NCBI GenBank assembly: GCA_051439605.1
Contig: JBFRWN010000050.1
Span: 1-16,081 of the forward strand
Reading direction: 5' to 3'
Source of the DNA: Synechococcus sp.
GTDB taxonomy: Bacteria > Cyanobacteriota > Cyanobacteriia > Thermostichales > PCC-7336
Length of the DNA stretch: 16,081 nucleotides
Below, one piece after another: positions 218-16,081 of the stretch. The notes under the pieces are model-generated. The model was given only the letters and a program-made list of their open reading frames with translations. It did no database searches and was not told where the DNA came from. Within the stretch, counting starts at the first letter, position 1. Each line of letters starts with the position of its first letter. Made by a program: the position numbers and the translations under genes.

Positions 218-922
218 TCAGCCACCTAAAAACATTTTTGAAATTTGGGGATTAGCCAGCAAATTGGGTCCGGTATCCTCAAAGCGATTCTCTCCCATTG
301 CGAGAACGTAGCCCCTATGAGCAATTGACAATGCCTGTTGTGTATTGTGTTCCACTATCAAGATACCGATCCCACTCTTGTTAATATCGTGGATAACTTC
401 GAAAATCTGGTCCACATAAAGAGGGGATAAACCTGCTGTTGGCTCATCCAGCAACAAAAGCTTGGGTTCGACCATTAAGGCTCGACCGATCGCAACCATT
501 TGACGCTGCCCCCCCGATAAATTGCCCGCAGCGGACTGTCGTTTTTCTTTTAAATCGGGGAATAACTCGTAGATTCGATCGATCTGACTGCCAAACTCGT
601 CAGTGCGGATAAATGCTCCCATCTCTAAATTTTCTTGTACGGAAAGAGTGGGAAACACGTTGTTGGTTTGCGGAACGTAGCAAATGCCTGACTGTACGAG
701 GCGATCGCTCCTCAATCTGGTGATATCGCGATTTTCAAACAGGATTTTCCCTTCGCGAACAGTGGCCAAGCCAAACAAGGATTTGAGTACAGTGGATTTC
801 CCAGCTCCATTGGGACCGATAATCACCACCATCTCCTTGTGATGAACTGTGAGGTCGATCCCCTTCAAAATATCCACGTCTCCGTACCCGCCATAGACGT
901 GGCAAAACTCAAGAAGGGCCAT
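218..922 (-). CDS. livF: Branched-chain/neutral amino-acid ABC transporter ATP-binding subunit (LivF/NatE-like)
   Basis: Walker A GPNGAGKS, YVPQ Q-loop, LSVQENLEMGA, LSGGQRQMVAIGRALM signature, LLLLDEPTAGL Walker B, VEH switch; 234 aa. Confidence 0.93.
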   Translation of the reverse strand: MALLEFCHVYGGYGDVDILKGIDLTVHHKEMVVIIGPNGAGKSTVLKSLFGLATVREGKILFENRDITRLRSDRLVQSGICYVPQTNNVFPTLSVQENLEMGAFIRTDEFGSQIDRIYELFPDLKEKRQSAAGNLSGGQRQMVAIGRALMVEPKLLLLDEPTAGLSPLYVDQIFEVIHDINKSGIGILIVEHNTQQALSIAHRGYVLAMGENRFEDTGPNLLANPQISKMFLGG

Positions 923-934
923 CGACGATTTCTC

Positions 935-1717
935 CTAATCCAATAGTTGTGCGTCTGACAGGTGACTCATGCCTAGATAGGCATTTCTGACTGCATCGTT
1001 GCTACGGATTTCTTCCATCGTCCCGAGAGCCAACACCTTGCCCTCAGCCAGTACAATGACGCGATCGCACAAGCGAGCGACTAAATCGAGATCGTGTTCG
1101 ATGATGCAAAAGGTTAGGCCTCTTTCAGCGTTGAGTTGCTTGACAACTCCGCTAAGCTGTCTCAAAAGCGTTCGGTTCACCCCCGCACCTGGCTCGTCCA
1201 ACAAGACCACTTTGGGAGTTACCATCATGGTGCGGCCCAATTCCAGAAGTTTTTTTTGGCCTCCGGAAAGGTTCTTTGCTAACTCGCTTCGCAAGTGAGT
1301 GAGGTTCAGATTCTCTAAAACAGCCTCAGCTTTGGCCATCACCTCTCGTTCGCGGTCCTTGACTTTTTTCCATTGCAAGCAACTGGATAACAAGTTCTCC
1401 CCTACTTGTTTCGAAGGAATCAGCATGAGATTTTCCAGTACCGTCATACGGCCAAACTCTCGAGGTATTTGGAACGTTCGCACCAAACCCTGTTGAAATA
1501 ATCGGTGAGGAGACCAACCTGTCACGTCTTGACGGTCGAAAAGAATCCAACCATTTTCTGGCTTGATAAATCCCGAAATTACATTAAAAAGCGTAGTTTT
1601 TCCTGCTCCATTCGGACCGATCAACCCAACAATTTCGCCCGCACCAATTTCGAAGGAACAGCCCTCTAAGGCATGGAATCCGGAAAATGACTTGGAGATA
1701 TTATCAATCTGAAGCAC
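935..1717 (-). CDS. livG: Branched-chain/neutral amino-acid ABC transporter ATP-binding subunit (LivG/NatA-like), GTG start
   Basis: GLIGPNGAGKTTLFN, RTFQ, LSGGQKKLLELGR, LLDEPGAGVN, IEHD and a C-terminal VRNAYLG motif; 12 bp upstream of livF. Confidence 0.92.
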   Translation of the reverse strand: MLQIDNISKSFSGFHALEGCSFEIGAGEIVGLIGPNGAGKTTLFNVISGFIKPENGWILFDRQDVTGWSPHRLFQQGLVRTFQIPREFGRMTVLENLMLIPSKQVGENLLSSCLQWKKVKDREREVMAKAEAVLENLNLTHLRSELAKNLSGGQKKLLELGRTMMVTPKVVLLDEPGAGVNRTLLRQLSGVVKQLNAERGLTFCIIEHDLDLVARLCDRVIVLAEGKVLALGTMEEIRSNDAVRNAYLGMSHLSDAQLLD

Positions 1718-1904
1718 AGTTGAAGAAGAAGCAGTAGATAAATTTATCTTAACGACCGACCGTTAGTTCGTCCCACAATAGAGGTCAACAAATATCATTG
1801 GTTCTTACAAGCGGAACGTGTCCAGCGGGTAACAGAGAGACCCGAAGCTGGCTATATGAAAACGTTGCAATAGCAGTTCAATCGTCGACGCCGTAGAGGT
1901 TTCA

Positions 1905-3206
1905 ATGGCTGTATATCGAAGAACTACACATAACTGCTGGACTTTGCTGGGATTCTCTAGCTTGATAGTAGCGGTGTTGGTGGCTTGCGGGGGCCCCCCA
2001 GCTAGCGACAGCGAGCCCTCTGAAGCTGAAAGTTCTCTCTCTGCTCCAGACGTCACTTTAGAGGGCGAAATTGATCTGGGAGCTCTATTGCCCATGACAG
2101 GGGACCTGCAAGCTTTTGGTGAGACCTCTTTAAACGGCATTCAGCTGGCTTTAACCCAAATTAACGATGCTGGGGGGGTGATGGGCAGCTCGTTAACCGT
2201 CAAGGTGGGAGATACCCAAACTGCCGCTCAGCCCAGTATCGATGCAGCCCAGAAACTGGTTTCCATTGAAGGAGTTGTGGGGATTGTTGGAGCCCTCTCC
2301 AGTGGCAATACAATTCCAGTGGCCGCCAGTGTTACGAGTACAAATGGCATAGCTCTAATTTCCCCGGCTTCGACGTCCCCTCTGATTAGCGAACTGGATG
2401 ATGGAGATTTCCTCTTTCGGACTGTTCCTTCCGATGCGTTTCAAGGGGTCGCACTCGCTCAGATTACTCGGGAGAAGGGACTCGATAACCTGGCAATTAT
2501 CTACATCAACAACGATTACGGAGAGGGATTGAAAGACAGTTTTGCTAAGGCGTTTCAAGATTTAGGTGGCACGGTCGCAGGAACTGCCCCCTACGAGCAG
2601 GGCAATGCTTCCTACAGGGGTGAGCTAGCGAAATTGGCAAGTCATGATGCCGACGGACTCGTGCTATTTGGATATCCAGAAAATGGTGTCACCATTTTGA
2701 AGCAATCCCTAGAGGAAGGGTTTTTCGATACCTTCGTCTTTTCTGACGGCATGCAAGCACCAGAAATTATTGATGCGATTGGGGAGGAATTTCTCGACGG
2801 TGTATTTGGGACGGCCCCGCAAGCGCTAACGGATAGCCCCGCCTACCAGACCTTTGTTACGGCTTACGAAGAGTCCTACGGCGAGCTACCTCCTAAGCCC
2901 TTTATCGATTCTGCCTACGATGCCACGATGTTGCTGGCGCTGGCAATTGAAAAAGCTGACAGCACTGAAGGGGAGGCGATTCGAGATGCCCTTCGGGATG
3001 TCGCCAATCCCCCAGGCACCGAGATTTTGCCTGGTGAGTGGGAACAGGCATTGGAAGCGATCGCGGCGGGTGAAGACATCGATTACGTCGGAGCATCCGG
3101 GAATGTCAACCTCAACGAAGCGGGCGATGTTGCCGGTACGTTCGCACACTGGGAAATAGAGGGGGGAGAAATCGTCACTGTCAAAGTTTTTGAGCCCGAT
3201 ATTTAA
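1905..3206 (+). CDS. ABC transporter substrate-binding lipoprotein, Leu/Ile/Val-binding (LivJ/LivK/NatB-like) family
   Basis: Signal peptide ending in lipobox LVAC (Cys28); GALLPMTG, INDAGGVMG, ISPASTSP, FLFRTVPSDAFQG, NNDYG and AYDA motifs; GAGG upstream of the ATG; flanked by the other four transporter genes. Confidence 0.92.
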   Translation: MAVYRRTTHNCWTLLGFSSLIVAVLVACGGPPASDSEPSEAESSLSAPDVTLEGEIDLGALLPMTGDLQAFGETSLNGIQLALTQINDAGGVMGSSLTVKVGDTQTAAQPSIDAAQKLVSIEGVVGIVGALSSGNTIPVAASVTSTNGIALISPASTSPLISELDDGDFLFRTVPSDAFQGVALAQITREKGLDNLAIIYINNDYGEGLKDSFAKAFQDLGGTVAGTAPYEQGNASYRGELAKLASHDADGLVLFGYPENGVTILKQSLEEGFFDTFVFSDGMQAPEIIDAIGEEFLDGVFGTAPQALTDSPAYQTFVTAYEESYGELPPKPFIDSAYDATMLLALAIEKADSTEGEAIRDALRDVANPPGTEILPGEWEQALEAIAAGEDIDYVGASGNVNLNEAGDVAGTFAHWEIEGGEIVTVKVFEPDI

Positions 3207-3319
3207 CCGATAGCTGTTGCTATTTCAGTCAGGTCGCGATACCTGTGTTGAAGCGATCGACGTTTCCACAATTTCAAGCCGGTCCGACAACGGGTCCGCA
3301 TGTGTTGTCTCTGCAATCG

Positions 3320-4282
3320 TCAACGATCGTCTTTGGGGAAAGACTTAACCAAAGGGTTTGGGGGTTTTTCGGGAAGAATGCCTTGTGGTCGAGCTAGCAA
3401 TATCACCTGCAACAGCACTCCAATTAGCAATAGGCGCAGTGCACCTGCACGAGCGGCCCATGCAATGGGCAATAAATTGGTGAAAAATTCAGTGCCGGAC
3501 CAGATTCCCCAGATGGCAAACGCCCCCAAAATGGCTCCCCGAGTATTGCCACTTCCCCCAGCAATTAGCATGACCCAAACGATAAACGTGACAAACTCGG
3601 GCTGAAACGCTTCGGGACTGATAAACGAGACAAAGTGGGCGTACAATCCGCCTGCTAAGCCCATCGCCATCGAGCCCAGCACAAATGCCTGCATGCGAAA
3701 CTTCAAGACACTTTTTCCGGCCGCTAACGTGGCCAGCTCATCTTCTCGAATGGCCCTTTGCACTCGCCCCCATGGTGAACGGTACGCTCGCTCGCTGAAC
3801 CAATAGATCGCAGCTAAGAGGGCCAATACCATCAGAAGATAAATGACAGCATCGTTTCCCGGCATCAATCCAGACAAAGGCTTGGGGATGCCAGCGATTC
3901 CTCTCACTCCGTTGGTTAACCATGCTTCGTTTTTGAGTATCAACCGCACAATTTCTGCCAGCCCAATGGTGGCAATCGCCAAATAGTCCGATCTCAACGT
4001 CAGAGTGATGGTGCCAATGGCAAGCGCAAGCGTCCCCGCAACCGCCATCGCGGACATTAGGCCCACCCAGAAGGGCATATCCAGCCCGCCTATGTAGCTG
4101 CTGCTAGCAGGGGTCGTCACAATTGCAGTTGTATATGCCCCGACTGCAAAAAACGCTCCAATGCCGATGTTGAGAATTCCCGTATATCCCCATTGGATGT
4201 TGAGTCCCAAAGCGATGATGGCGTAAATACTCCCCAACGTGAGAAAAAAGACGACGTAATTCACGAGTCCAGGCAAACTCAT
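3320..4282 (-). CDS. livM: Branched-chain amino-acid ABC transporter permease (LivM/NatC-like)
   Basis: LGLNIQWGYTG, LRSDYLAIATIG, SPWGRVQRAIREDE, GGSGNTRGAILGA and RPQGIL motifs; many TM segments. The ATG directly abuts the livH stop and has a GGAGG upstream. Confidence 0.92.
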   Translation of the reverse strand: MSLPGLVNYVVFFLTLGSIYAIIALGLNIQWGYTGILNIGIGAFFAVGAYTTAIVTTPASSSYIGGLDMPFWVGLMSAMAVAGTLALAIGTITLTLRSDYLAIATIGLAEIVRLILKNEAWLTNGVRGIAGIPKPLSGLMPGNDAVIYLLMVLALLAAIYWFSERAYRSPWGRVQRAIREDELATLAAGKSVLKFRMQAFVLGSMAMGLAGGLYAHFVSFISPEAFQPEFVTFIVWVMLIAGGSGNTRGAILGAFAIWGIWSGTEFFTNLLPIAWAARAGALRLLLIGVLLQVILLARPQGILPEKPPNPLVKSFPKDDR

Positions 4283-5140
4283 CTATCGTCCTCCAAATAG
4301 CCCCGTTGGGCGCACAATGAGCATGAAGACTAAAATGGCAAACGAAATCGCCGATTTATATGCCGGTGAAATAAACAGCGATGAGAGCTCTGTGGCGATC
4401 CCGAGAACTAATCCTCCCACGATCGCTCCATAGGGCTTACCAATACCCCCTAAAATGGCGGCGGCGAATATCGGTAACAACAAGCGCCATCCCATTGTGG
4501 GATGCAAACGGGTATCTAACCCCAAAAATACTCCGGCCGCACAGGCCGTCAACCCACCTAACGCCCATGTCCACATCACCACACGCTCGGTGTCGATACC
4601 GGTGATTTGAGCCAAATCAACATTATCTGCCATTGCTCGCATCGCTTTGCCCATGCGGGTGTACTGTAAAAAGCAATGTAACGCGATCGTTAGGACCAGA
4701 GCTCCCACCACAATGACAATTTGATCGGGTTTAATGCGCAGTCCAGCAATACTCCAAGGCAGCTGAATGCCAGACCGATAAACTTGGTTGTTGGGTCCCC
4801 AAACGAGCTGAATTAAACTTCGCAAAATTAACCCAATTCCAAACGAAGAGATCAGCAGAATGACAGGTTGACGTCGTCTCAAGTAACGGTAGACGAGCTG
4901 GTCTGTGGCTAAAGCTGCTGCGATCGTTGCGATAGAAGCTAACCCCAAACCCAGCCAAATGGGGAAGCCCGCCATTGAAATGAATGTAAAGCCAAAATAC
5001 GCTCCTAATGAAATCAGATCTCCGTGAGCGAAGTTGGCAAAACGCAAAATTCCAAAGGTTAGCGAAACCCCCACTGCTCCTAAGGAGATGATGCTACCCA
5101 AGACAACACCATAAATCAGTAGCTGCAGAATTTCAGTCAC
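4283..5140 (-). CDS. livH: Branched-chain amino-acid ABC transporter permease (LivH/NatD-like), GTG start
   Basis: GILRFANFAHGD, TRMGKAMRAMADN..LA...GI, FAAAILGGIG..YGA and RPTGLFG motifs. Confidence 0.92.
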   Translation of the reverse strand: MTEILQLLIYGVVLGSIISLGAVGVSLTFGILRFANFAHGDLISLGAYFGFTFISMAGFPIWLGLGLASIATIAAALATDQLVYRYLRRRQPVILLISSFGIGLILRSLIQLVWGPNNQVYRSGIQLPWSIAGLRIKPDQIVIVVGALVLTIALHCFLQYTRMGKAMRAMADNVDLAQITGIDTERVVMWTWALGGLTACAAGVFLGLDTRLHPTMGWRLLLPIFAAAILGGIGKPYGAIVGGLVLGIATELSSLFISPAYKSAISFAILVFMLIVRPTGLFGGR

Positions 5141-9823: not shown

Positions 9824-10444
9824 TCACCCCACCCCTTCAAAAGACTTTGGCTTCCGCAACAACCAAGCCATTGTCCCCCCTTTAACAAGTCCTCCCGCCA
9901 ATCCACCCACCGCCAATGTCAGCGGCCAGTTATGGGCGCTATAAACAGCTAAACCCGAACATAAATTCGGCCCACCCCCGATCGCCAACCCGATGGCGCT
10001 AGCCACTATCCACCACGCCGCTTGTCGCAAATGTCGGCGCAAATACAGCCATTGCGCCAGACCAATCGCGACTCCTCCCACCGCAGCCACCCATCCACAC
10101 GCGAGTTCTTCCGGAACCCACATGGGCAGATAAATCGAGGTGGCATCCGCCAGAGAAGCCACGGCTAAAGCCAGCCCCAAAGCACTGACCCATCCCAATC
10201 CGCACCCCACTATCGTCAACACCACCCACCACCCAGCTCTGGGCAGAAACCAACGCAGCACCAACCACTGCATGACCCCCAACAGAAAAGGACCGACCAG
10301 AAAGACAATCCACATCTCGTAAGACAGGTTGGTTAGATTTAGAACCACATTTGTCAGGACAAGGGCGATCGCAGTCGCCACCGCCCAGGCGATCGCGATC
10401 GCAACGGAGCGGAGGGGTCCTGTGGATTGAGAGACACCAGTCAT
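9824..10444 (-). CDS. Hypothetical multi-pass membrane protein with duplicated G..QWL.LR.....A.WW motif; ATG 10444 preferred over 10645
   Basis: Internal repeat GVMQWLVLRWFLPRAGWWVV / GLAQWLYLRRHLRQAAWWIV; about 6 Gly/Ala-rich hydrophobic segments. The 67-codon upstream extension looks non-coding-like. Confidence 0.72.
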   Translation of the reverse strand: MTGVSQSTGPLRSVAIAIAWAVATAIALVLTNVVLNLTNLSYEMWIVFLVGPFLLGVMQWLVLRWFLPRAGWWVVLTIVGCGLGWVSALGLALAVASLADATSIYLPMWVPEELACGWVAAVGGVAIGLAQWLYLRRHLRQAAWWIVASAIGLAIGGGPNLCSGLAVYSAHNWPLTLAVGGLAGGLVKGGTMAWLLRKPKSFEGVG

Positions 10445-10868
10445 TTGTATTAATTGGAATTGCAGAGATTGGGGGTTGCATCCCGATGCTCTCACGGAGA
10501 TTGAAGGGCGATCGAACGGACTACCCGGAAGCGATAGCATGATTGTCATCTGCTTGATGTCGAGGGACTGAATCAAGCACGGCGCTCGATTGCAAAGCCA
10601 ATGCAATGAAGGCTGACCAAACAATTCTGAGAGATTTTGTAACAAACTGAGTTTCTGTTACAGAAGGTAAACAAACAAGAATGAGAACTATCCATAGCTC
10701 GTACTCACTCTCCACAGAAGACCTAAACCCTTAAATAGAAGGCTTTACGCCTAATCATGACGGCCAAATGCCACCTCAAATACATGCGCAAAATGGTTCG
10801 CCAGTAACTTTCCCACTGTTCAATACAGCAGCATCTCGCCCAATACGTTGCATTTTTGTAAAGTATTG

Positions 10869-12232: not shown

Positions 12233-13738
12233 ATGGCATTCGAGCATGATGTTTTTATTAGCTACGCCCATATTGACAACGAACCCTCGCTTGAGGGGGG
12301 AGAGGGGTGGGTTAGTAGTTTTCATCACGCACTAGAAAAGCGACTGACGAAGCTATTGGGAAAGAGGCCAAAGATTTGGCGCGATCCAAAATTGCATGGA
12401 AACGATTACTTCAGTAATGAGATTGAAGAACAGTTTCCCAAGGTTGCCCTGTTAATTTCGGTGCTGACCCCCAGCTACGTAAAATCGGACTGGTGTTTAA
12501 AAGAATTACATGACTTTTGCCTGGCTGCCTCGCAAACGGGGGGGGTGAAAGTAGTGGGCAATCAATCCCGCATCTTCAAGGCCATCAAAACCCCTCTTCC
12601 TCTAGAACAACACCCCAATGAACTACAGCCTTTGCTGGGGTACGAGTTTTTTGAGGTAAATGCGGCCAACGTTCCGGTGGAATACGGACGCGAATTTGGG
12701 CCGGAGATGGAACTGAAGTTTGTCCAAACTATCAACGAGCTGGCGTATGACATTTACAAGCTGTTGCAGGAGTTCAAGTCAGAAGGGCTATCTTCCGAAC
12801 CCGTTTCTAGCAAAACCAGTGGTCAGCTGAAACCTGTGCCCCCTCCCTCTGGGAAAGTGGTGTATTTAGCGGAGACCTGCTGCACATTGTCAGCGGTTAG
12901 GGACCAGATGCGCAGAGATCTAGCGCTGTCGGGGCACCTGGTCTTGCCCGATCGCCCTTTGCCCTATTCCAGCGAGTTTTCCTCAGAGATTCGAGCCATG
13001 CTGGCAAAGTGTGACTTGTCCGTGCACCTGCTGGCCAGCGAATCTAGTCCGGCAGATCTAACGGAGTCGTTCGAGGCACAGTTGCCCCAGATTGAAACCG
13101 CTCGCATGCGGACGCAACTGAAATTGGCCGCCAAGAAAGTCGCGGAACGGACGGGGTTTACCCAAGTGGTGTGGATGCCGGGGGCACACGAGCTAGAGGT
13201 TTGGGCATCGGAGGTGGCTCAGCTGCCAGGATACGCAGATGTCTTGCAAACACCGGTGGAGGAATTAAAGACGCTCGTACACATGCGGATCGAACATCCG
13301 GTGTCTGTCAGTGTCAGTGGGCGCAAGCGGGGGGAACGAGCCGTGGTGTATCTGGATTTTGACCGATGGGACTGTGATGACGCCGAGTTGGAACGGGTTT
13401 ACGACCTATTGAGTCAACAGTTTAAGGTGCTGATGCCCGATTACGAGGCGGGAGAAGGGTTGGAGAGTTCGGAACAGAAGTTACAGCGAGCGCAGGGAGT
13501 GTTGATTTTTTACGGTCAAGGCAGCGAGTTTTGGCTTAAAAGGCGATTGAATGCATTGCGCAAGTGTTTTTTGGGGGAGCGATCGCAGTTGACTCAAGGG
13601 GTCTTTCTGGCAAGCCCGATGACCCCTAACAAGTTGGAGTTGGCGGTACCGGGGGTTTTAGCCTTTTGCGAGCAGGTGCCGTTTTTGCCGCCGCTGCAAT
13701 CGTTTATTGACCATGTAAATCAGAGCTCGGAGGTGTAG
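12233..13738 (+). CDS. TIR-domain protein with two further predicted TIR/DUF4062-like alpha/beta domains
   Basis: N-terminal DVFISYAH...IWRD...LLISVLTPSYVKSDWCLKEL is a bacterial TIR signature with Glu91 at the catalytic position. Segments starting at about aa 208 (VVYLAET...CDLSVHLL) and aa 371 (VVYLDFD...GVLIFYG...WL) repeat a similar strand/helix pattern; this part is inference. Confidence 0.85.
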   Translation: MAFEHDVFISYAHIDNEPSLEGGEGWVSSFHHALEKRLTKLLGKRPKIWRDPKLHGNDYFSNEIEEQFPKVALLISVLTPSYVKSDWCLKELHDFCLAASQTGGVKVVGNQSRIFKAIKTPLPLEQHPNELQPLLGYEFFEVNAANVPVEYGREFGPEMELKFVQTINELAYDIYKLLQEFKSEGLSSEPVSSKTSGQLKPVPPPSGKVVYLAETCCTLSAVRDQMRRDLALSGHLVLPDRPLPYSSEFSSEIRAMLAKCDLSVHLLASESSPADLTESFEAQLPQIETARMRTQLKLAAKKVAERTGFTQVVWMPGAHELEVWASEVAQLPGYADVLQTPVEELKTLVHMRIEHPVSVSVSGRKRGERAVVYLDFDRWDCDDAELERVYDLLSQQFKVLMPDYEAGEGLESSEQKLQRAQGVLIFYGQGSEFWLKRRLNALRKCFLGERSQLTQGVFLASPMTPNKLELAVPGVLAFCEQVPFLPPLQSFIDHVNQSSEV

Positions 13739-13742
13739 GGGT

Positions 13743-15971
13743 TTGGTAGAGGTAACGGAACAACTCAATCCTTTCCCTGGATTGCGCCCCTTTGAATTTG
13801 GTGAAGAATATCTATTTTTTGGCCGCGAGGGACAAGCGGACGAGCTGCTGCTGAAACTTCAGCAGCACAGGTTTGTGGCGATTATCGGCCCTTCCGGAAG
13901 CGGCAAATCTTCGTTGGTACAAGCGGGATTATTGCCAGCTATCTATAGTGGCTTTTTACAAGGGGCCGGGTCCCACTGGCGTGTAGCGGTGATGCGACCG
14001 GGAGTATCGCCGATCCGGAATTTAGCACTGGAGTTAAATCAGCCAGAGGTATTGGGGAAAGAAGAGGAGTCTGAGGAAGATGCCAACCTGCAGGCGTTGT
14101 TTGTGGAGTCGACGCTGCAACAGGGGTGCTTGGGATTGGTAGAGGTAGTGCGGCAGGCAAGGTTGGAACCGCACGAAAACCTGTTGCTGGTAGTGGACCA
14201 GTTTGAGGAGCTGTTCCGCTTTCAGAGGGGGCGAGGTAAAGCCGGTGAACTGGCGGGGGACGAAGCAGCGGCATTTGTGAAGCTGCTGTTGGGGGCGGTG
14301 CAGCAGCGGCAGCAACCGATCTACGTTGTGTTGACCATGCGCTCAGACTTTTTGGGGGATTGTACCCAGTTTGTGGGGTTGCCGGAGGCGATTAACGACA
14401 GTCAGTATTTGATCCCGCGCATGACGCGGGACCAGCTGCGATTGGCGATCGAGGGGCCGATTGGGGTAGTGGTCGAAACAATTGCGCCGAGTTTAGTGCA
14501 GCGGCTGTTGAACGATGTGAGGGATGACCTGGATCGACTGCCGGTTTTGCAACATGCCTTGATGCGCACTTGGGACTATTGGCAGGGGCATCGCGAGGGA
14601 GACGAGCCTGTGGACCTGCGCCATTACGAGGCGATTGGGACGATGTCAGCGGCGCTATCAAATCACGCAGATGACATTTACGAGCACAAGCTGACGGCGC
14701 GGCAGCAAGAGATTGCCAAGCAGATGTTTCAGCGGCTGACGGAGCTGGGACAGGATGGGCGCGAGATCCGGCGACCAACGTCCCTGAGCGAGATCGCCAG
14801 AGTGGTGGATGTGACGGAGGAGGAAGTTCGTCGAGTGGTCGATCGGTTTCGGGGGGCGAATAATTCGTTTTTGATGCCACCGGTTCCGGAACCGCTGACG
14901 AACGAGACGATGGTGGATATTTCCCACGAGAGTTTGATGCGCATTTGGGGACGGCTGAAAGAGTGGGTCCAGGAAGAGAAAACGTCAGCCAGAGAATATC
15001 TGCGGTTGACGGATAAGGCGGCTCGCTATCGGGCAGGTGGAGCAGGCTTGCTGCAGGAACCGGAGTTGTCTTTGGCATTGAACTGGCGGCGGGAGCAGCA
15101 GCCAACGGTGGTTTGGGCGAGTCGGTATGCAGATGGGTTTAACGACACGATCGAGTTTTTGCAGGAGAGTGTGGAGGCGAGGGATCGCAAGCTTGCGGAG
15201 CGGGAACGGGCGCAGGAGGAGAAGGAAAGACTGCGAAAGCAGCAAGTAAAACGGGCGAGAAGTATTGCCCTGGGGATGACGCTGTTGGCTGCGGTGGCGA
15301 TTTGGGCGGCTGTGTTTGGTTGGTTAGCGAAGAGGCAGGCGAATCGGGATCGCGATTTGGCCGAGCGGGCTCGTTTGAATGCGACATTGTTGGCACAAAG
15401 TCTGAAGACCGACAATTTGCTGGTGTCACACCTGGAACTGGAGTCATTGGTCACAGCCATTCGTTTGGGAAAAAGGCTCGAACAAGAGAAGGGGGTGGAT
15501 GGGGATGTTCGCTGGCGAGGAGTGGCATCTTTAAGCGAAGCCGTTTACTCGGGACGAGAAAGAAACCGTTTGGAAGGGCATAGCGGGCCTATCAGGAGTG
15601 TGAGTTTCAGCCCGGATGGGCAAACACTAGCCTCTGCCAGCCCTGACAACACGATCGAGCTTTGGACCGTCGAGGGGGAAGAACTGCAAACGCTGGAGGG
15701 GCATCGCGGAAGTGTCCTGAGCGTGAGTTTCAGCCCGGACGGTGAGACGGTAGCCTCCGCCAGCTCTGACGGTACGGTCAAGCTGTGGAATTTTGAGGGA
15801 GAGGAGCTACAAACTCTGCAGGGGCATCGTGGAACTGTCTATAGCGCGAATTTCAGCCCGGACGGTCAGTCGGTGGCCTCCGCTAGCGAGGACGGCACGG
15901 TCAAGCTGTGGAATTTTGAGGGAGAAGAGCTACTAACTCTGCAGGGGCATCTTGGATCTGTCTATAGCTAG
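13743..15971 (+). CDS. STAND NTPase (nSTAND1-type) - coiled coil - predicted TM helix - WD40 repeat protein; 3' end uncertain because the repeat frame continues past the TAG
   Basis: NPFPGLRPF...FFGRE, Walker A GPSGSGKS (aa 49), Walker B LLLVVDQFEELF, LTMRSDF, LPVLQHAL and SHESL..W.RL..W; hydrophobic stretch at aa 508-529; GH...FSPDG...W repeats. TTG start with GGAGG at 13729-13733. Confidence 0.9.
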   Translation: MVEVTEQLNPFPGLRPFEFGEEYLFFGREGQADELLLKLQQHRFVAIIGPSGSGKSSLVQAGLLPAIYSGFLQGAGSHWRVAVMRPGVSPIRNLALELNQPEVLGKEEESEEDANLQALFVESTLQQGCLGLVEVVRQARLEPHENLLLVVDQFEELFRFQRGRGKAGELAGDEAAAFVKLLLGAVQQRQQPIYVVLTMRSDFLGDCTQFVGLPEAINDSQYLIPRMTRDQLRLAIEGPIGVVVETIAPSLVQRLLNDVRDDLDRLPVLQHALMRTWDYWQGHREGDEPVDLRHYEAIGTMSAALSNHADDIYEHKLTARQQEIAKQMFQRLTELGQDGREIRRPTSLSEIARVVDVTEEEVRRVVDRFRGANNSFLMPPVPEPLTNETMVDISHESLMRIWGRLKEWVQEEKTSAREYLRLTDKAARYRAGGAGLLQEPELSLALNWRREQQPTVVWASRYADGFNDTIEFLQESVEARDRKLAERERAQEEKERLRKQQVKRARSIALGMTLLAAVAIWAAVFGWLAKRQANRDRDLAERARLNATLLAQSLKTDNLLVSHLELESLVTAIRLGKRLEQEKGVDGDVRWRGVASLSEAVYSGRERNRLEGHSGPIRSVSFSPDGQTLASASPDNTIELWTVEGEELQTLEGHRGSVLSVSFSPDGETVASASSDGTVKLWNFEGEELQTLQGHRGTVYSANFSPDGQSVASASEDGTVKLWNFEGEELLTLQGHLGSVYS

Positions 15972-16081
15972 AATTTCAGCCCGGAAGGACATACGGTGGC
16001 CTCCGCTAGCGAGGACGGCTCGGTCAAGCTGTGGAATTTTGTGGGAGAAGAGCTACTAACTCTGCAAGGGCATCTTTGAAC
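15570..16081 (+). repeat. Tandem 123-bp (41-aa) WD40-coding repeats: four complete units and a partial fifth, cut by the window end
   Basis: Units start at 15570, 15693, 15816, 15939 and 16062. Units 3 and 4 differ at 10 of 123 positions by manual alignment. Confidence 0.95.

Follow-up and report, generated by a model that had tools for sequence, protein, structure and literature searches.

We analyzed a 16,081-nt stretch of DNA from a marine cyanobacterium (hereafter, the window), which is the whole of contig C50 (JBFRWN010000050.1) of the Synechococcus sp. genome G000 (GCA_051439605.1), and found that it carries a conserved two-gene unit in which a protein with three TIR-like domains (open reading frame 1, ORF1) is encoded apart from an effector-less STAND NTPase of the nSTAND1 type (ORF2), whose chain continues into a predicted transmembrane (TM) helix and a WD40 repeat array. 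We propose, with a probability of roughly 0.5, that the membrane-spanning STAND protein switches on the separate triple-TIR protein, a predicted NAD-cleaving enzyme (NADase), as an immune or cell-death response; the odds of an immune role are about even. The pair is real, conserved and mechanistically attractive, and it had already been catalogued; what can be said of its function comes from sequences and structural models only. Its features are as follows.

12233..13738, forward strand: ORF1, triple TIR-like protein (TIR + DUF4062/DrHyd-like + TIR), 501 amino acids, 980 homologues.
12233..12787 (residues 1-185), forward strand: ORF1 domain 1, TIR with a catalytic-type Glu91 (codon 12503-12505), FxsC-N-like.
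12845..13300 (residues 205-356), forward strand: ORF1 domain 2, DUF4062/NIR-like, Gln295 in place of the canonical Glu; predicted inactive adaptor.
13328..13732 (residues 366-500), forward strand: ORF1 domain 3, TIR-like, invariant Trp434, Lys/Arg at 438; predicted inactive adaptor.
13729..13733, forward strand: Shine-Dalgarno-like GGAGG of ORF2, within the end of ORF1.
13743..15971, forward strand: ORF2 as assembled (nSTAND1, charged helix, predicted TM helix, WD40), 742 amino acids, incomplete.
13770..15038 (residues 10-432), forward strand: nSTAND1 NTPase module, Walker A and B intact, with 8 residues ahead of NPFPGL; 335.5 bits.
15264..15320 (residues 508-526), forward strand: predicted single TM helix, basic residues on the STAND side, mean hydropathy 2.21.
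15573..16081, forward strand: start of a 123-nt WD40 repeat array that runs off the contig end, likely onward on contig C71 of G000, positions 1-2016.
15957..16081, forward strand: poorly supported contig end with TAG at 15969-15971; likely an assembly artefact.

ORF2 begins with a TTG codon at 13743, 4 bp past the ORF1 stop, and no sigma-70-like promoter was found between 11900 and 13900. An earlier note on this DNA had reported the 4-bp gap, the GGAGG, NPFPGL at residue 9 and Glu91, all of which we confirmed in the sequence, and Pfam bore out its domain calls, with TIR_2 in ORF1 and nSTAND1 and WD40 in ORF2. A GTDB scan with an alignment query confirmed at least 578 loci (a single-protein query gave none), and the best 80, which span Cyanobacteria, Acidobacteriota, Bacteroidota, Proteobacteria and others, were analyzed. 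Four loci at contig ends were excluded. Of the 76 that could be tested, 73 had an effector-less nSTAND1 gene downstream of TIR, within 150 nt in 69 of these 73, and in most loci it started within a few bases of the preceding stop; one long intergenic gap was explained by a transposase. In L042 and L044 the order was reversed, with STAND upstream of TIR and followed by methyltransferase and glycosyltransferase-like genes, and L065 held a truncated TIR copy without STAND, the sole such case in the 76. None of the 73 loci carried a fused TIR-STAND gene, and the 4-34 residues that precede NPFPGL in the 71 loci with a nearby start were unconserved.

The coupling was also apparent in the reverse direction. 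Among 80 metagenome nSTAND1 loci, 8 of which were untestable and set aside, a TIR-like partner preceded 29 of the 31 genes with ≥45% identity, 16 of the 23 with 36-44% and 1 of the 18 below 36%; most of the distant nSTAND1 proteins have long in-frame N-termini instead. Twenty loci from relatives behaved similarly, with a partner at 7 of 9 close STAND genes and at none of 11 distant ones, all 11 of which had 70-499 in-frame residues upstream. Because the loci are related to one another, these counts overstate their independence, and the correlation between TIR and STAND distance matrices (r 0.79) only reflects co-inheritance and was not used as support. The survey, which asked whether ORF1 homologues consistently precede effector-less nSTAND1 genes, thus found the pairing conserved across genomes, upholding the separate TIR gene and effector-less STAND put forward in the earlier note.

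Two of the nine close STAND genes lacked a partner: they are orphan sensors that occupy one syntenic position in two species of the genus, and both genomes hold the pair elsewhere. The orphan sensors L181:4421-7117 (reverse strand) and L182:3179-5755 (forward strand) are effector-less, have SH3-type tails, lie near genes that we take to be chlP, LysR and pspA, and may share a TIR protein encoded elsewhere in the genome. An orphan triple-TIR gene with an N-terminal extension was seen at L197:7925-9979 (reverse strand) in a genome that also has the pair (L191); its neighbours are presumably type I restriction-modification-like genes.

Tight translational coupling, with the second start within a few bases of the first stop in most loci, would also be expected of a guard or toxin-antitoxin arrangement in which the resting STAND keeps the TIR protein inactive and frees it once the sensor has been triggered or has suffered damage; activation would then come by release and not by nucleation. 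The rarity of TIR genes lacking a STAND in the locus (1 of 76, the truncated copy, with STAND upstream in two more) fits this arrangement, which we nevertheless consider improbable, given that the TIR gene comes first, that fused forms exist, that orphans of both kinds occur in genomes also holding a pair, and that TIR NADases generally require oligomerisation.

The division into two genes is real, because contigs from two sequencing sources bridge the junction gap-free: one from run X1, possibly the source sample of the window, covers 12521-13972 with 0 differences, and one from X3, another study, covers 12946-13883 with 14 substitutions and 0 gaps. A frameshift error as the origin of the split was therefore rejected. 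At the other end of ORF2, X1 read depth runs at 32-62, rises to 502-795 over 15691-15956 and falls to 4.6 over 15957-16081; the TAG at 15969-15971 falls inside this last segment, and the repeat reading frame runs on beyond it. The stop is likely an artefact of repeat collapse during assembly, and ORF2 is probably cut there and continued on C71; its reading as a pseudogene was rejected. Of 370 31-mers in the tail of C50, 81 recur in C71 and none in other contigs, and its loose end at 15917 was located at C71 position 1474, the exit of that contig's last repeat. C71 begins in frame with 12 WD40 repeats; a Pro-rich linker comes next, and then a weak match to SH3_3 (20.5 bits against a cut-off of 27). 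The two contigs are likely to join here. The DNA of the 12 repeats is 87% identical, and the variation lies mostly directly after GH. A second, complete paralogous pair is present on contig C68 of the same genome (55% and 70% identical to the window pair); the contig ends just past it, where ~52900-52997 of C68 looks like the beginning of a transposase gene.

The AlphaFold2 model of ORF1 (predicted local distance difference test score, pLDDT, 87.3; predicted template modelling score, pTM, 0.63) comprised three TIR/NDT-like, flavodoxin-like domains. Domain 1 matched TIRAP (Z 13.0, root-mean-square deviation (rmsd) 3.0, 137 residues aligned), domain 2 MilB (Z 12.7, rmsd 2.9, 131 aligned) and the IL-1RAcPb TIR (Z 12.5), and domain 3 the RPS4/RRS1 TIR (Z 11.4, rmsd 3.4, 131 aligned), with Z values that tie with those of other Rossmann-like folds; Foldseek with the whole model returned mostly unrelated multi-domain Rossmann proteins. 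Profile-profile comparison of the three domains gave probabilities below 4%, so the domains did not arise by recent triplication.

Conservation set domain 1 apart. In an alignment of 115 homologues, out of 120 listed among the 980 found, Glu91 was invariant (115/115), its surroundings line up with the WCLDE motif of RUN1, and identity was 54% in domain 1 versus 36% and 32% in domains 2 and 3. Pfam TIR_2 matched residues 7-96 at 31.7 bits (cut-off 28), and FxsC_Nterm of NCBIfam scored 35.1 bits, below its cut-off of 130. ORF1 homologues match PF13271 (DUF4062) in the region of domain 2; a search of the window's own genome did not turn it up. Position 295 is Gln in 114 of 115 homologues and aligns with the second Glu of S-x-T-E-x-E-Y in two canonical DUF4062 proteins (L188 and L189), presumably the catalytic one; the family motif at this site is S-x-x-x-L-Q, and the window protein has neither Glu. 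Domain 3 has Trp434 in 115/115, and position 438, four residues further, is K in 70, R in 38, Q in 5 and E in 2. DUF4062 (NIR) domains are described in two papers (10.64898/2026.09.04.749371; 10.64898/2026.05.01.722283) as NADases whose function a Glu-to-Gln change abolishes. Because the Glu is kept in domain 1 only, this domain is likely the enzyme of ORF1, a predicted NADase judging by its sequence, and domains 2 and 3 are likely catalytically dead adaptors. The "multi-TIR effector" of the earlier note is not supported, since domains 2 and 3 lack the catalytic Glu.

ORF2 has intact Walker A (GPSGSGKS) and Walker B (LLLVVDQFEE) motifs, and its STAND model (pLDDT 89.7, pTM 0.85) matched Orc1/Cdc6, NRC3 and Apaf-1 in Foldseek. 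A hydrophobic helix follows the STAND module in 56 of 59 long partners, with an excess of Lys/Arg on the STAND side in 52 of the 56, and two relatives in the genus carry a C-terminal SH3_3 domain above cut-off. Because of this positive-inside bias and the SH3_3 tails, the helix likely places the WD40 sensor outside the cytoplasm (type II topology), as judged from hydropathy and domain context, which does not support cytosolic, NLR-like sensing of phage proteins. Sensor ends varied: among 43 of the 73 partners scanned, 30 ended in WD40, 3 in TPR, 2 in CHASE2, 2 in DUF2914, 1 in DUF4231 and 1 in a coiled coil, with 4 giving no clear match. The partner L009:2787-3533 ends in DUF4231/SLATT and L006:3494-5719 in TIR plus CHASE2, both without WD40. 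Were the helix not transmembrane, ORF2 would be a conventional sensor of the Apaf-1 type that detects phage proteins in the cytoplasm and from which the effector had been split off. Three of the 59 partners have no helix above threshold, the helix evidence is a hydropathy scan alone, and L006 and L009 carry their TIR or DUF4231 domains after the STAND, all of which would suit a cytoplasmic sensor; against it stand the helix in 56 of 59, the charge bias in 52 of 56, C-terminal SH3_3, CHASE2 and DUF2914 domains, and a TM annotation of the orthologue in the material available from Kaur et al. 2021, making this explanation very improbable.

Starting from the observed layout, domains, reciprocal coupling and restriction of the Glu to domain 1, we infer the binding, ligand and output of a mechanism in which nSTAND1 is predicted to span the inner membrane a single time and to expose its WD40 propellers on the side away from the cytoplasm. 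An envelope-side ligand, either an invader protein or envelope damage, would bind the variable WD40 array, and the STAND module would oligomerise in an NTP-dependent manner, as Avs proteins and Apaf-1 do. Domains 2 and 3, lacking the Glu, would dock ORF1 on the STAND and cluster domain 1, which would then destroy NAD+ or make an ADP-ribose-type signal, leading to dormancy or death.

Family modularity argues for this activation of a triple-TIR NADase by a membrane STAND. A profile of the ORF1 family matched 2,898 representatives (clusters at 50% identity, E up to 1e-30), including partial and fused relatives. Among 150 listed representatives, of which 25 longer ones were scanned, P0133 and P0204 are one-chain fusions with nSTAND1 in which domain 3 runs directly into NPFPGL; other longer representatives add CHAT, kinase, cyclase, LRR, TIR or ParA domains, and in L132 a cyclase takes the place of domain 1 and domains 2 and 3 are retained. 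Of the 80 loci, 10 contain DUF4231/SLATT-like genes or domains. The add-on domains CHAT, kinase, SLATT, extra TIR and ParA are typical conflict effectors. Together with the tight two-way coupling, the invariant Glu91 and the variable sensor end, these fusions, the L132 swap and the conflict-effector add-ons support the proposal, as does a patchy distribution (none of the 150 other cyanobacterial genomes sampled in one search had it, and 4 of 60 did in a second with a different query).

Several observations weigh against it. The cytoplasmic phage proteins bound by known Avs are out of reach for a periplasmic sensor, no PADLOC model fits either protein of the window pair, and neighbouring genes lend no support to the immune function suggested in the earlier note: PADLOC models at 1e-25 matched 4 of 134 sampled neighbour ORFs, all generic enzyme folds, in a sample drawn from 328 candidates at 57 loci that includes some spurious frames and has no background control. 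The orphan-sensor locus is of housekeeping type and looks stable, not mobile; the CHASE2, cyclase and kinase add-ons belong to signalling; and upstream of four nSTAND1 genes at 37-38% identity (three scanned) lies a gene for a membrane HEAT protein in place of TIR. These effector-less genes are L129:631-2994, L130:1639-3975, L133:1611-3956 and L134:1611-3956, and the upstream protein has ~780 amino acids. Finally, in 16 of the 44 loci with a complete STAND gene and >600 nt beyond it, the next gene encodes a TonB-dependent receptor, and 2 more loci have one within 2.1 kb; five of the receptor loci served as seeds. The receptor loci belong to Bacteroidota and Thermoanaerobaculia and form one subtree of related sequences. 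The gene order suggests that in those lineages the pair and the receptor make up a three-gene trans-envelope operon. A TonB-profile match in L075 was weak, was not confirmed by tblastn and was not counted. The receptor is ~900 amino acids long with a helical or TPR-like N-terminal extension (L013, L025, L026, L028, L030, L031, L033, L035, L036, L041, L045-L048, L053, L055 and L062). In L057, L062 and L071, all from Bacteroidota, the TIR gene is preceded by a conserved glycosyl hydrolase 18 gene and one for a TrkA_N-domain membrane protein.

The main rival gives the same anatomy a non-immune role in trans-envelope signalling, whereby the propeller, in some lineages acting with a TonB-dependent receptor, would report a nutrient, surface or envelope state and domain 1 would make a low level of an NAD-derived second messenger with no killing. 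The TonB-dependent receptors, the CHASE2, cyclase and kinase fusions, the few defence neighbours and the stable orphan locus in the genus all speak for this role. We regard it as possible but doubtful: behind the cyanobacterial pairs no TonB receptor homologue turned up, the receptor loci are confined to one subtree, SLATT and CHAT associations and the patchy distribution point elsewhere, and one orphan TIR gene adjoins what we take to be type I restriction-modification-like genes.

The layout itself is not new, as the earlier note had left conceivable. Figure 2 source data of Kaur et al. 2021 tabulate the same arrangement as "TIR+DrHyd+TIR -> nSTAND1+TM+propeller", with the closest named orthologue annotated with a TM, and also hold kinase, SLATT, TPR and PDZ variant rows; the window agrees with these neighbourhoods in its separate upstream multi-TIR/DrHyd gene and its nSTAND1 without N-terminal effector, followed by TM and propeller. 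The pair appears there as table rows only, section 7 defining nSTAND1 and treating FGS and EAD systems, and we saw nothing there on which domains are inactive, on topology, on reciprocal coupling or on function ("TonB" has 0 matches in the source data). No published text naming or testing the pair was found in a search that left most subscription journals outside, and the available portions of PMC10907252, PMC12803255, PMC13581612 and PMC7159879 do not describe it. The window pair is thus a new member of a catalogued but unnamed kind.

Its closest described relatives are the TIR-ParA (FxsC-FxsT) systems, in which, according to the available text (bioRxiv 10.64898/2026.10.19.760177), an upstream active TIR plus inactive TIR is followed by a STAND (nSTAND1 included) or a single-helix PASTA/SH3 receptor, but which need ParA. 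All 66 family members scanned match FxsC_Nterm weakly (best E 3.6e-16), and a ParA-like domain is fused before the triple TIR in P0235, P0197, P0233 and P0195; a ParA/MinD-like domain stands in this position in P0202 as well, which links the family to the TIR-ParA systems. Unlike these systems, ORF2 has no ParA and starts 8 residues before the STAND motif, and the versions without ParA described there fuse TIR directly to STAND, whereas the window pair is split. The FxsC C-terminal model matched none of the 66 family members, though Glu-less TIR-like domains are present.

Avs proteins, including PsAvs2 with its N-terminal NIR/DUF4062 NADase, share the STAND switch, the C-terminal repeat sensor and a NAD-cleaving TIR or DUF4062 fold as output, as far as the accessible parts of the sources go (bioRxiv 10.64898/2026.09.04.749371; PMC13581612; PMC12803255). 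In Avs the effector is fused and the sensor cytoplasmic, whereas here the effector is a separate gene (0 of 73 loci fused; 2 of 150 listed representatives), and the Glu-to-Gln change that abolishes Avs DUF4062 defence is the natural state of domain 2. This domain, with Gln in 114 of 115 homologues, also differs from NIR/DUF4062 NADases at large in having no catalytic Glu. EAD-coupled and bDLD3 STAND-FGS pairs likewise place a STAND sensor and a TIR effector on adjacent genes (PMC7159879; Kaur et al. 2021, both in part); a homotypic adaptor present in both proteins links them, whereas the STAND here has only 4-34 unconserved residues before NPFPGL. The same short stretch sets the window pair apart from amyloid-motif-coupled NLR pairs. 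Thoeris, where a signal made by a TIR activates a ThsA-type effector, differs in that the partner here is a STAND, and no Ths model matched either protein or the 134 sampled neighbours. By analogy only, the pair recalls a Toll-like receptor with MyD88 and TIRAP, which combines an outward repeat sensor, one membrane helix and a cytoplasmic TIR assembly with non-catalytic TIR domains; here a STAND ATPase, not a TIR, makes up the cytoplasmic part of the receptor, and a common fold shows no function.

More tentatively, and as an unlikely extension, the pair may represent a class combining NLR and Toll logic, in which a membrane STAND with a diversifying WD40 array would read the periplasm or cell wall, in some phyla linked to an outer-membrane TonB-dependent receptor, and several sensors, orphans included, would feed one cytoplasmic TIR NADase via dead TIR/DUF4062 adaptors before invader genes are expressed. 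Characterised STAND immune receptors, in the sources as available, sense phage proteins inside the cell and carry the effector in the same chain. The family treated here is large (2,898 clusters) and spread over many phyla, and our proposal, if true, would show STAND signalling across a membrane and dead TIR domains as bacterial adaptors. G000 occurs in sequencing runs from marine sediment, with no RNA run listed among them; it belongs to the same genus as G002, whose proteins bear the name Synechococcus sp. PCC 7336, and the complete orthologous pair WP_017324257 and WP_017324258 of a cultured strain makes a directly testable model.

Three more distant nSTAND1 genes in G000 (C93:1-12742, which is L186, and C13:10229-11461) are 27-32% identical; one has its own N-terminal TIR-like domain and one has only 12 in-frame residues upstream. 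The remaining genes of the window encode transporters and housekeeping-type functions. Positions 218-5140 hold what we take to be ABC transporter genes of the branched-chain-amino-acid type, in which the gene for the binding protein lies on the opposite strand, flanked by the permease and ATPase genes. Positions 9824-10645 (reverse strand) encode a hydrophobic, multi-pass protein of 273 residues for which Pfam gave no match at E 0.1.

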